From the NCBI GenBank assembly GCA_030019435.1, contig JASEEV010000001.1, positions 28,064 through 92,063 on the forward strand: a DNA stretch of 64,000 bases, in the 5' to 3' direction. The number at the start of each line of letters is the position of its first letter. The stretch's first letter is position 1. A program made the position numbers and the translations under genes. The notes beneath the pieces are model-generated. The model was not told where the DNA came from. It saw only the letters and a list, made by a program, of their open reading frames with translations, and did not search any database. Below are positions 12,488 to 14,127 of the stretch, one piece after another. Source of the stretch: Methanocellales archaeon. GTDB taxonomy: Archaea; Halobacteriota; UBA148.

Positions 12488-12507
12488 CACATCAAATCTC
12501 ATCTGGT
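12488..12507 (+). repeat. Copy 1 of 20-bp palindromic repeat (CACAYCARATCTMATCTGGT)
   Basis: cacatcaaatctcatctggt, followed by gaatagcatgg (extended similarity to copy 3). Lies in the divergent intergenic region. Confidence 0.6.
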
Positions 12508-12556
12508 GAATAGCATGGGAATAAAGCTTTAAGCTTTTGAGACAAATTGTTTTTAG

Positions 12557-12775
12557 GTGCCAGAAATGAGCAGCGTAAGTAAGACGTTTGATTGGTATAC
12601 TCGACATCCAAAAGAACTTAGGGGACATGCAGGAAAACACGTCGCAATAGTAGACGAAGAGATCGCCAGCGTCGCCAACTCCGCCATAGAAGCCTATGAG
12701 AAAGCCAAGAAAAAGTATCCGAAAAAGATACCCCTTCTAACATACGTTCCAAAGGGCGAAACACTGGTCCTATGA
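12557..12775 (+). CDS. Small protein (72 aa), upstream partner of the aspartic protease
   Basis: 72-aa ORF with a conserved-looking core HAGKHVAIVDEEI. Its stop overlaps the start of the next gene (ATGA), indicating translational coupling. Confidence 0.5.
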   Translation: MPEMSSVSKTFDWYTRHPKELRGHAGKHVAIVDEEIASVANSAIEAYEKAKKKYPKKIPLLTYVPKGETLVL

Positions 12776-13182
12776 CTAAGAAACACTATTTTCCCTATAA
12801 GAGAGAGCCCTCTAAGATATTTGGAGAGATCAGCAGACCAGTCGTCGAGGCTTATCTAGAGACAAGGGACGGGGATTGGTTCCAAGTGTCTCCTTATGCG
12901 GATTCTGGGGCAGATGTCACGTTATTCCCCAGATCAATCTGTGAGATCTTGGGTCTAAAACTCAAAGAGGGAGAGAAGAGCAGTATCACTGGCGTCTCAG
13001 GCGAAGAAATAAAAATATTCATCCATAAAATCAAGATCAGAATTGGTGACGAGGGGCTTGAAATACCTGCCGCCTTCGCCGAGAGGGAGGACATACCCTA
13101 TCTACTGGGCAGAGCAGGCATCCTGGATTATTTTGATATTTGGTTTGAGAAGGACAGGGTTTGCTTTATCGTTAGGAATTAG
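12772..13182 (+). CDS. Retropepsin-like (clan AA) aspartic protease
   Basis: Catalytic motif ADSGADVTLFP (D-S/T-G-A); about 136 aa, the size of single-lobe retropepsin-like proteases; C-terminal ILDYFDIWF dimerisation-like strand. Confidence 0.7.
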   Translation: MTKKHYFPYKREPSKIFGEISRPVVEAYLETRDGDWFQVSPYADSGADVTLFPRSICEILGLKLKEGEKSSITGVSGEEIKIFIHKIKIRIGDEGLEIPAAFAEREDIPYLLGRAGILDYFDIWFEKDRVCFIVRN

Positions 13183-13246
13183 TTGAATTGGTTGAGGGAG
13201 ATCATAAGCGTAAAGATTACTAGAATGCCAACTTCAATAACCCAAT

Positions 13247-13266
13247 CACACCAAATCTCATCTGGT
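13247..13266 (+). repeat. Copy 2 of 20-bp palindromic repeat
   Basis: cacaccaaatctcatctggt between the convergent protease and vapC genes. Confidence 0.6.
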
Positions 13267-13290
13267 TATGGTGGAGCGAAAAGGGGAACA

Positions 13291-13713
13291 TCAAAACTCT
13301 GGCAACCTCTTGATTTTATCAACGTTTTCAAAGCTACGATCAAATGAATAGATCTCTTTTATTCCCTCCCTCCTCATGATCTGTATGGCAAGAGAATCGT
13401 TCGGATCCATCTTCGTCTCATCCATGAGCTCTATCGCTCCCAGATAATCGTTTTTGGTGACGTCCACGATCTTGATGTTGTCCGATGAGTACAGTCCGAT
13501 CAATAGCGTGGCAAGCTCATCCAGTGGCAATGCTCGTTTTAGTATATTTGAAACCTCAGACAGATGAACGACGGCTGTTATCACCGTCTCTCCTTCATTT
13601 ATCCTCCTCACAATTTCCTTTGATTTCTCCTTCATCGCCTTTTGCTTTGGACTCAGGTCATGCACTGGCTTATAATAGGCGTAGATGAAGATGTTTGCAT
13701 CTAAGAACCTCAA
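13291..13713 (-). CDS. vapC: PIN-domain toxin
   Basis: MRFLDANIFIY N-terminus (first acidic residue) and SFDRSF C-terminal motif; 140 aa. Confidence 0.8.
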   Translation of the reverse strand: MRFLDANIFIYAYYKPVHDLSPKQKAMKEKSKEIVRRINEGETVITAVVHLSEVSNILKRALPLDELATLLIGLYSSDNIKIVDVTKNDYLGAIELMDETKMDPNDSLAIQIMRREGIKEIYSFDRSFENVDKIKRLPEF

Positions 13714-13964
13714 ACCTCTCCCTCATAGAACTCTTTTTCAAATTCGTCCCAATCTCCTATGTTCATGCCTAGATCGGCTTTATCAAAGAATTTCGTCAGG
13801 TCCACCTTCTTCTTCGGAATCATCTTGAGATATCCTTTTCTCTTTATTATGAACACCTCATTGGTCCCTTTCAACTCTTCTTTTCTCCAGTCAGACGGCA
13901 ACACGAATCTCCCTTGCTCATCAACTTTCTTCGCTTCAACGCCCTCGACCAAATCTATCACCAT
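13710..13964 (-). CDS. vapB: AbrB/SpoVT-fold antitoxin
   Basis: GRFVLPSDWRKE swapped-hairpin motif; 84 aa; stop overlaps the vapC start by 4 nt. Confidence 0.7.
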   Translation of the reverse strand: MVIDLVEGVEAKKVDEQGRFVLPSDWRKEELKGTNEVFIIKRKGYLKMIPKKKVDLTKFFDKADLGMNIGDWDEFEKEFYEGEV

Positions 13965-14107
13965 AGTAAAGTAAATGTGCCATATATTAATAGTTTATGG
14001 TCAAAATAATATAATCTGGCATCACGTCATATACTTCGCATTGATCCTGACATAATCGTATGTGAGATCGCAGCATCATCGGTCGTTTAGTCACATCGCA
14101 GATCAAA

Positions 14108-14127
14108 CACACCAGATCTAATCTGGT
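14108..14127 (+). repeat. Copy 3 of 20-bp palindromic repeat, overlapping the stop codon of the SepCysS gene
   Basis: cacaccagatctaatctggt (perfect 8-bp inverted arms CACCAGAT/ATCTGGTG), followed by gaatagcaatg. Confidence 0.6.

Follow-up and report, generated by a model that had tools for sequence, protein, structure and literature searches.

Compact direct repeats as probable recombination sites of a strain-variable cassette array downstream of SepCysS in an uncultured archaeon

The fast turnover of accessory genes in bacteria owes much to cassette-capture platforms such as integrons and Xer-dependent dif modules; the archaeal ones reported to date are all classical integrons (PMC9668308). 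Here we describe a locus that appears to reach the same outcome, namely modular, strain-variable toxin-antitoxin or defence cassettes with exact boundaries, by means of a different and very compact site. It lies in a 64,000-nucleotide stretch (hereafter the window; assembly GCA_030019435.1, contig JASEEV010000001.1, positions 28,064 to 92,063) of an uncultured archaeon that carries the NCBI label Methanocellales, and it consists of three copies of a short imperfect palindrome that bound small gene cassettes beside the gene for O-phospho-L-seryl-tRNA:Cys-tRNA synthase (SepCysS). This neighbouring gene is essential and serves tRNA cysteinylation, and the lineage, which is related to methanogens, is known from metagenomes alone.

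The attC sites of integrons are imperfect inverted repeats that carry R'' (RYYYAAC) and R' (GTTRRRY) boxes and form single-stranded hairpins of 57-141 nt defined by their structure; the cassettes are mostly promoterless and co-oriented, and both IntI and attI are absent in clusters of attC sites lacking a nearby integrase (CALINs). The array described here shares with integrons and CALINs, including those of archaea (Ghaly et al. 2022, PMC9668308), tandem integrase-less cassettes each bounded by a recombination site, strain-variable content, cargo mostly of the toxin-antitoxin or restriction type, and a recombinase that need not be adjacent. It differs in that its sites are only 20-31 bp long, conserved in sequence and double-stranded in appearance, in the lack of R''/R' boxes and of any IntI or attI among the open reading frames (ORFs) scanned in the window, and in cassettes that lie in either orientation, apparently with promoters of their own (read by eye), and are anchored at the 3' end of a housekeeping gene.

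A dif site is a 28-bp element with two 11-bp Xer-binding arms and a 6-bp spacer, found in both archaea and bacteria (PMC2958812, PMC13141974). The XerC/D-dependent dif modules of Acinetobacter and the integrative mobile elements exploiting Xer (IMEX; PMC13141974, PMC6449649) resemble the present array in their size of about 1 kb, their frequent toxin-antitoxin content, their short imperfect-palindrome sites and their want of a recombinase of their own, being shuffled between contexts by a host enzyme with crossovers that map within the sites. Whereas dif sites follow an 11-6-11 layout and alternate in orientation, the repeats studied here have an odd centre (a 7-bp central region) and are all direct, and the array is chromosomal and archaeal rather than plasmid-borne.

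A further comparison is with the tandem elements with lambda-type att sites, which depend on tyrosine integrases whose archaeal families mostly target tRNA genes (PMC8371274). In these, as here, direct repeats of a short core flank each insert, inverted arms surround an asymmetric centre of about 7 bp, insertion takes place at the 3' end of a conserved gene, and arm-type sites could reside in the conserved flank of one copy. The differences are that our units are below 1 kb, encode neither integrase nor excisionase and target the 3' flank of a protein-coding gene. Finally, Tn7-type transposons use a "safe harbour" downstream of glmS, so that accessory DNA comes to lie past the stop of a conserved essential gene and the gene stays intact. 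Accessory DNA likewise begins a few bases past the SepCysS stop in at least three lineages; inverted transposon ends, a short target-site duplication and transposase genes are all missing here, and the boundaries are long direct repeats. The array is best described as a site-specific cassette array with compact sites unlike those previously described. Its elements are, in order of position:

12362..12487, unstranded: block B, a conserved non-coding flank joined to R1
12485..12515, + strand: repeat R1 (core 12488-12507, CACATCAAATCTCATCTGGT), the SepCysS-distal copy, flanked by block B (left) and the DUF5678/protease cassette (right)
12516..13243, + strand: cassette 1, with genes for a DUF5678 protein (12557/12566-12775) and a clan-AA (retropepsin-like) aspartic protease homologue (12772-13182)
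13244..13274, + strand: repeat R2 (core 13247-13266, CACACCAAATCTCATCTGGT), where the 3' ends of the protease gene and vapC converge
13275..14104, - strand: cassette 2, a VapBC-type pair with VapC (PIN) at 13291-13713 and an AbrB/MazE-like antitoxin at 13710-13964
14105..14135, + strand: repeat R3 (core 14108-14127, CACACCAGATCTAATCTGGT), 4 nt downstream of the true SepCysS stop
14140..15284, - strand: SepCysS (PF05889, 2.8e-46), whose 3' end anchors the array

A sequence-only reading of the window had proposed three co-oriented copies of the repeat, starting at 12488, 13247 and 14108 with spacings of 759 and 861 bp, and had held that they were not due to chance. Both proposals are borne out. 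The 20-nt pattern CACAYCARATCTMATCTGGT matches the window only at 12488-12507, 13247-13266 and 14108-14127, always on the + strand, and has no further match there at up to three mismatches; 0.06 matches are expected by chance, and none of 100 shuffles reached three. An independent repeat finder returned the same three-copy family as a 31-nt unit (12485-12515, 13244-13274 and 14105-14135, with the same spacings of 759 and 861). A position-weight matrix built from all known copies scores R1-R3 at 37-40 bits, against a shuffle maximum of 14, and its scan of the window reveals no weaker copies, the remainder staying below 12 bits. A degenerate fourth copy seen by eye near 10567-10598 was discarded on two grounds: the matrix gave nothing above 12 bits, and the stretch is not conserved in L005, a related genome described below.

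The evidence that assigns a role to the repeats comes from relatives, which comprise metagenome-assembled genomes (MAGs) from NCBI, Logan contigs and JGI metagenome contigs; these are few and short, and the arrays in them are seen incompletely. The pattern is not an abundant genomic word, an explanation that the sequence-only reading had considered: a scan of one genome per species (185,579 species) yielded a single core match, in L005, at the orthologous SepCysS locus of another "Methanocellales" MAG. That reading had also suggested looking for variation in cassette content among strains. Content does vary, among strains as well as species, and the homology breaks off at the edges of repeats.

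In sister strains L001, L044 and L047 (99% identity), similarity to the window runs from SepCysS across both cassettes and breaks off at 12483, just outside R1; a different gene follows there, whose product shows an R-x6-H (HEPN-like) motif read by eye only, without a family-model check. The Logan contig L043 has the arrangement of the window, with block B and the gene for a 393-aa protein that lies to its left, and each strain variant was recovered in at least two independent assemblies. Metagenome contig L017 supplies two breakpoints: it matches the window only over 12485-13267 (95% identity), that is, from the outer edge of R1 to one base past the R2 core, and both its flanks are unrelated to the window, the left one encoding the C-terminus of a Type IIG restriction-modification enzyme. 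In L005, whose SepCysS gene is 77% identical at the nucleotide level, there are two copies. One is diverged and stands 5 nt after the SepCysS stop; the other, with a core identical to that of R2, adjoins 125 nt that share 84% identity with block B (window 12362-12487). Homology between L005 and the window covers block B and the R1 core and ends at 12507 (84% identity over 149 nt, at L005 2678-2826, compared with 77% for the SepCysS gene), and between the two L005 copies lies a PF02697 VapB and PIN pair in the opposite orientation. L048, where a repeat likewise directly follows the SepCysS stop, shares 91% identity with L005 as far as the outer edge of this SepCysS-proximal copy, after which the two have unrelated cassettes, that of L048 being an AbrB/MazE-PIN pair unrelated to the pair of L005; the orientations of the two are opposite. 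In L004, a related species with a SepCysS 92% identical at the protein level, SepCysS abuts the gene for a DUF434 protein directly. Window 10508-14139 is missing there, and homology ends at 14139, 4 nt outside R3.

These comparisons provide six independent homology breakpoints, none of them more than a few bases from the edge of a repeat, and the boundaries between conserved and variable DNA at the locus all coincide with edges of repeat copies in several strains and species. Judged from these alignments, the repeats are very probably the recombination junctions at which modular cassettes are exchanged. The earlier proposal that the copies sit at cassette boundaries is thereby upheld, with one exception. 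Copy 3 had been placed on the SepCysS stop codon, an overlap that alignment identifies as an artefact of a 1-nt deletion. In the window, an A-run at about 14149-14153 has five A where the sister assemblies have six; the deletion replaces the conserved C-terminus ..IIKKYA* with other residues and extends the ORF to 14118, whereas the three near-identical assemblies L001-L003 and all homologues end in ..IIKKYA or similar. The true stop is the TAG at 14140-14142, and the repeat begins 4 nt beyond it. The deletion may stem from a mistake in assembly or may be a genuine frameshift close to the end of an essential gene; the annotation needs correcting in this respect, the odd C-terminus of SepCysS in this assembly being a frameshift.

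The copies share a well-defined layout. AAN precedes each of them, and similarity vanishes immediately outside the AAN-core unit; the core CACACCAAATCTCATCTGGT occurs unchanged in six flank contexts from at least three lineages, the flanks being unrelated. Its symmetry centre is a single base, and arms of about 6-9 bp (ACACACCAR / CTGGTGAAT) surround an asymmetric 7-bp centre, ATCTMAT. In the form ACACACCAG / CTGGTGAAT, 7 of 9 arm positions are symmetric, the inner six perfectly so in R3, and the centre reads ATCTAAT or ATCTCAT. As a sequence pattern, this is the layout of a tyrosine-recombinase att core, with inverted arms and an asymmetric overlap of 6-8 bp. Such an asymmetric centre gives the site a defined polarity, in agreement with the co-orientation of all copies in the window, L001, L005 and L017 and with the cassette 1 that the window and L017 share, which has the same polarity relative to the core in both. 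Each lineage has its own deviations in the SepCysS-proximal copy (window species: G8 and A13; L005: C12, G17 and A19; L048: A19), changes that fit a hybrid or less constrained site. R1 and R3 had been credited with 11 further shared nucleotides; their ungapped common extension is 8 nt, GAATAGCA, and the remainder aligns only with a 1-nt indel. In the sister strain L003 (3633-3655), an 18-nt insertion, GGTAGCCGATCTCATAAA, directly follows R3 and contains GATCTCAT, which resembles the core centre in inverted form.

The perfect 8-bp arms ascribed to copy 3 proved correct. They follow an 8-3-8 scheme, CACCAGAT-CTA-ATCTGGTG, and R3 folds at -7.3 kcal/mol (z = -4.2). It is the sole copy with a stable hairpin; R1 and R2 do not fold better than shuffles. 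The commoner core, that of R2 and of copy 1 in the sister strains, has 7 of 8 arm positions complementary, and R1 of the window has 6 of 8. R3 also scores as a terminator-like hairpin on the - strand, behind SepCysS. A longer inverted repeat around R3 (-18.4 kcal/mol, z -2.6) was set aside, its signal being mostly that of the R3 hairpin. An RNA gene at the repeats or in block B was rejected: neither gave an Rfam match for a structured RNA, and two-sequence consensus folds of them are weak, with 0-1 compensatory pairs.

Direct core repeats stand at both ends of each insert (R1/R2/R3 in the window; the L017 cassette, which runs from repeat to repeat), and L004 lacks the island; no relative retaining one unoccupied core was found. 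We consider it probable, if well short of certain, that the repeats serve as core sites for a site-specific recombination system that stacks small integrase-less cassettes immediately 3' of SepCysS, and we propose with moderate confidence that a trans-acting, probably tyrosine, recombinase acts on circular forms of the cassettes. In this proposal a cassette would exist transiently as a non-replicating circle with one core, and an enzyme encoded elsewhere in the genome would act on the cores; a tyrosine recombinase is favoured because the inverted arms (about 6-9 bp) enclose a 7-bp centre that is asymmetric. Recombination between the core of the circle and a core at the locus would integrate the cassette and duplicate the core as a direct repeat, and recombination between any two direct copies would excise or delete what lies between them. 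Repeated rounds would yield the order block B, R1, cassette, R2, cassette, R3, SepCysS. Cassette 1 would have entered first and the VapBC cassette later, into the SepCysS-proximal site, in which case the left flank of R2 would derive from cassette 1 and the right flank of R3, GAATAGCAATGCC, from the chromosome. This sequential-entry model reproduces the flanks observed, and the right flank of R3 is conserved as GAATGACAAAATCC in L005 and L048. The toxin-antitoxin cargo would stabilise the array, and the SepCysS-adjacent copy, a perfect hairpin in this species, may aid termination of SepCysS transcription.

Several observations weigh against this proposal. A Pfam scan of about 50 ORFs in the intervals 1-13 kb and 27-64 kb revealed no integrase (the genes of the interval 14-28 kb are syntenic core genes in relatives), and the cassettes themselves encode only DUF5678 and the protease, and VapBC. 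With no recombinase gene found, the enzyme and its chemistry are inferred only. IMG/VR, INPHARED and PLSDB contained no free, viral or plasmid form of a cassette or site. L048 has a single copy of the repeat and a cassette without a distal one, and the system as a whole is carried by only a handful of short MAG and metagenome contigs. Finally, a homologue of the DUF5678/protease pair (65% identity) occurs between housekeeping genes in L045/L046, an ANME-1-like genome, without flanking repeats. This last case also led us to reject the idea that the repeat is an intrinsic part of the DUF5678/protease module: the repeat belongs to the array of this lineage, not to the genes.

A viral or plasmid donor was likewise rejected, since IMG/VR contained no related proteins and neither PLSDB nor INPHARED gave a match. 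The 20-mer CACACCARATCTCATCTGGT is present once each in about 30 marine phage contigs (L010-L041, from marine metagenomes and IMG/VR), in constant, coding-like flanks. As a donor these matches were dismissed: they represent one conserved marine-phage coding sequence and are coincidental, unrelated to the archaeal repeat.

The main rival explanation, although an unlikely one, is that the repeat is a chromosome dimer-resolution (dif) site and that the cassettes exploit the host XerA, as the IMEX CTX and TLC do at the dif site of Vibrio or as dif modules do in Acinetobacter. The single-base centre of CACCAGAT-CTA-ATCTGGTG permits spacers of 3, 5 or 7 nt but never 6, which makes an 11-6-11 reading impossible. 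The inner motif of bacterial dif sites, ATAA-N6-TTAT, is absent from this core, a further point against this rival. The absence of an integrase from the cassettes and the near uniqueness of the core among GTDB representative genomes agree with this rival, yet the copies are all direct, where those of dif modules alternate. The window contains no xerA gene. Conservation can be read both ways. R1 and its flank are strictly conserved between species while the SepCysS-proximal copy decays in each lineage, which fits one functional site plus hybrids and recalls the dif sites of Thermococcales, also with conserved flanks (PMC2958812); however, the locus is cleanly lost in L004 (92% SepCysS) and lacking in L006-L008, which would be unexpected of an essential dif site unless dif lies elsewhere. 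Toxin-antitoxin modules are common cargo of dif modules (PMC13141974). GC skew in the window tracks the gene strand, and a replication terminus placed from it was rejected, the skew merely following gene orientation.

Less likely still is that the palindrome is a shared regulatory element, whether an operator for an antitoxin or another regulator or a terminator, and that strains differ through ordinary homologous recombination between short conserved sequences. A shared operator had been among the suggestions of the sequence-only reading, and we do not retain it. Dimeric regulators do prefer imperfect palindromes, and R1 lies just upstream of a TATA-like box (read by eye) of the DUF5678 operon, but R2 is flanked by two converging 3' ends, R3 precedes the vapB start codon by 144 nt, and antitoxins of unrelated families (DUF5678, AbrB-like, PF02697) would not share one operator. 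A terminator would suit the hairpin of R3 behind SepCysS, but copy 3 is the only one with a stable hairpin. Moreover, general homologous recombination is poorly served by 20 bp of identity, and the six breakpoints at repeat edges and the movement of a cassette from repeat to repeat would be left unexplained.

An integron array without a nearby integrase (a CALIN), in which the repeats would be attC sites, is very improbable and largely refuted. The resemblance is one of plan: tandem short cassettes are separated by similar repeats, cassette content varies among strains with boundaries at the sites, and archaeal integrons, most of them CALINs, are enriched in toxin-antitoxin and restriction-modification cassettes (PMC9668308). 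It does not extend to the sites, whose conserved unit is only 20-31 nt. No repeat has an RYYYAAC...GTTRRRY pair, the sole match in 10.4-14.4 kb falling inside a 96-aa ORF; in 121-nt contexts, R1 and R2 show no folding beyond that of shuffles on either strand (z +0.3 to +1.6); and there is no Rfam match. Nor does it extend to the cassettes, which lie in both orientations (cassette 1 on +, cassette 2 on -) and have apparent promoters of their own (TATA by eye), or to an IntI or other integrase, none being present among the scanned ORFs. From the earlier suggestion of attachment sites with attC-like logic, recombination sites can therefore be kept, whereas a literal attC or integron cannot, for want of R''/R' boxes, of the fold and of IntI and in view of the mixed orientation. 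That chance, or assemblers joining unrelated metagenome contigs at a short shared word, produced the pattern is hardly credible: all data do come from MAG and metagenome contigs, with L002, L003, L043, L044 and L047 ending near the array, but the copies far exceed chance in shuffles and weight matrix alike, each structural variant turned up at least twice, in independent assemblies made by different pipelines (NCBI MAGs, Logan contigs, JGI), a repeat of 20-31 nt is in our judgement too short for chimeric joins at final assembler k-mer sizes, and the orthologous loci of L005 and L048 show the same logic at a divergence of 77%.

A wider and more tentative reading is that the array may represent a previously undescribed archaeal gene-capture system, in which integrase-less toxin-antitoxin or defence cassettes of less than 1 kb move as units, via a double-stranded core of about 21-25 bp, into a safe harbour located only a few bases past the 3' end of SepCysS, giving a strain-variable array that follows the logic of integrons or dif modules, has sites outside the definitions of both and is served in trans by a possibly new recombinase, with block B (125 nt) as a platform or accessory site. 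Should the enzyme be found, the result would be a minimal, novel means of site-specific recombination over about 21-25 bp and a possible tool, as well as a concrete case of the movement of toxin-antitoxin modules between archaeal genomes, and the core would serve as a marker sequence for locating further arrays.

The cassettes of the window measure 0.76-0.86 kb and carry toxin-antitoxin or defence genes. The DUF5678 protein of cassette 1 matches PF18929 (9.8e-14), and its partner matches aspartyl-protease families at 4e-4 to 1.5e-3, below the family cut-offs, and TIGR03698 at 1.6e-4; from these matches cassette 1 is a putative two-gene toxin-antitoxin-like module. In cassette 2, VapC matches PF01850 (1.9e-16), its 84-aa partner gives weak MazE/AbrB matches, and the two ORFs overlap by 4 nt. 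TATA-like promoter sequences precede the DUF5678 and vapB starts (read by eye). The cassettes are part of a 3.6-kb island with a GC content of 0.40-0.42 across 10-14 kb, in surroundings of 0.46-0.48, and its toxin-antitoxin pairs, nuclease and restriction-modification fragment are typical mobile accessory content. To the left of block B the window has the following features:

9892-10548, - strand: DUF434/DUF5616 gene, left of the island
10508..12361, unstranded: distal part of the low-GC island, absent from L004, holding block A, the 96-aa fragment and the 393-aa gene
10596-10672, unstranded: block A, non-coding, conserved with L005
10677-10967, + strand: 96-aa fragment resembling the N-terminus of a Type IIG restriction-modification enzyme
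11158-12339, - strand: 393-aa PD-(D/E)xK-type nuclease-like protein

The 393-aa protein has 191 distant homologues and the invariant residues D128, E141 and K143. Its single-sequence structure prediction was unusable (pLDDT 34.6); the AlphaFold model reaches a pLDDT of 92.6. On these grounds the protein has a PD-(D/E)xK nuclease-like fold, belongs to an undescribed family and is not a recombinase. Since the gene is absent from L005 and from the variant-B strains, we regard it as cargo and not as the recombining enzyme.

Block B may serve as a platform or accessory sequence, or may be a promoter region. It contains a palindrome, GCATATA-N6-TATATGC, near 12365-12385. Blocks A and B are 82-84% identical to L005 (about 2005-2080 and 2678-2806), above the 77% of SepCysS, and the intervening genes differ. 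Beside block B, L005 2200-2650 (- strand) holds a decayed ORF with a stop codon; it has no Pfam match, and its "DGIIYIGRSG" recalls GIY-YIG nucleases.

In L004 (2210-2250, corresponding to window 10508-10548), the DUF434 gene starts within the 3' end of SepCysS, with an overlap of 35 nt and a different N-terminus. This overlap and the altered N-terminus suggest that L004 is a deletion derivative of an island-bearing ancestor and not a never-occupied site. L006-L008 (SepCysS identity 81-84%) are without the repeat and have other genes downstream of SepCysS, in the order 339-aa gene, IMPDH, HTH regulator, CDC48 and HSP20. The last four of these are found in the window at 38.6-43.4 kb on the opposite strand. 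Their relocation and inversion relative to L006-L008 point to a large rearrangement between these genomes and the window (14.1-43.5 kb), one breakpoint of which would fall at the 3' end of SepCysS, the site of the array.

A tRNA gene with an apparent intron lies at 8985-9084 (- strand); it was missed by ARAGORN and is the only Rfam match around the array (60.5 bits, a 100-nt match to a 71-position model). Its homologues are at 1655-1870 in L005, with a much longer insert, and at 3462-3563 in L048, about 120 nt away from where the toxin-antitoxin cassette ends. Near small ORFs without a Pfam match, the window also contains a 94-nt direct repeat (46613-46706 and 46963-47056; 84% identity, 350-nt spacing), the longest that it holds.

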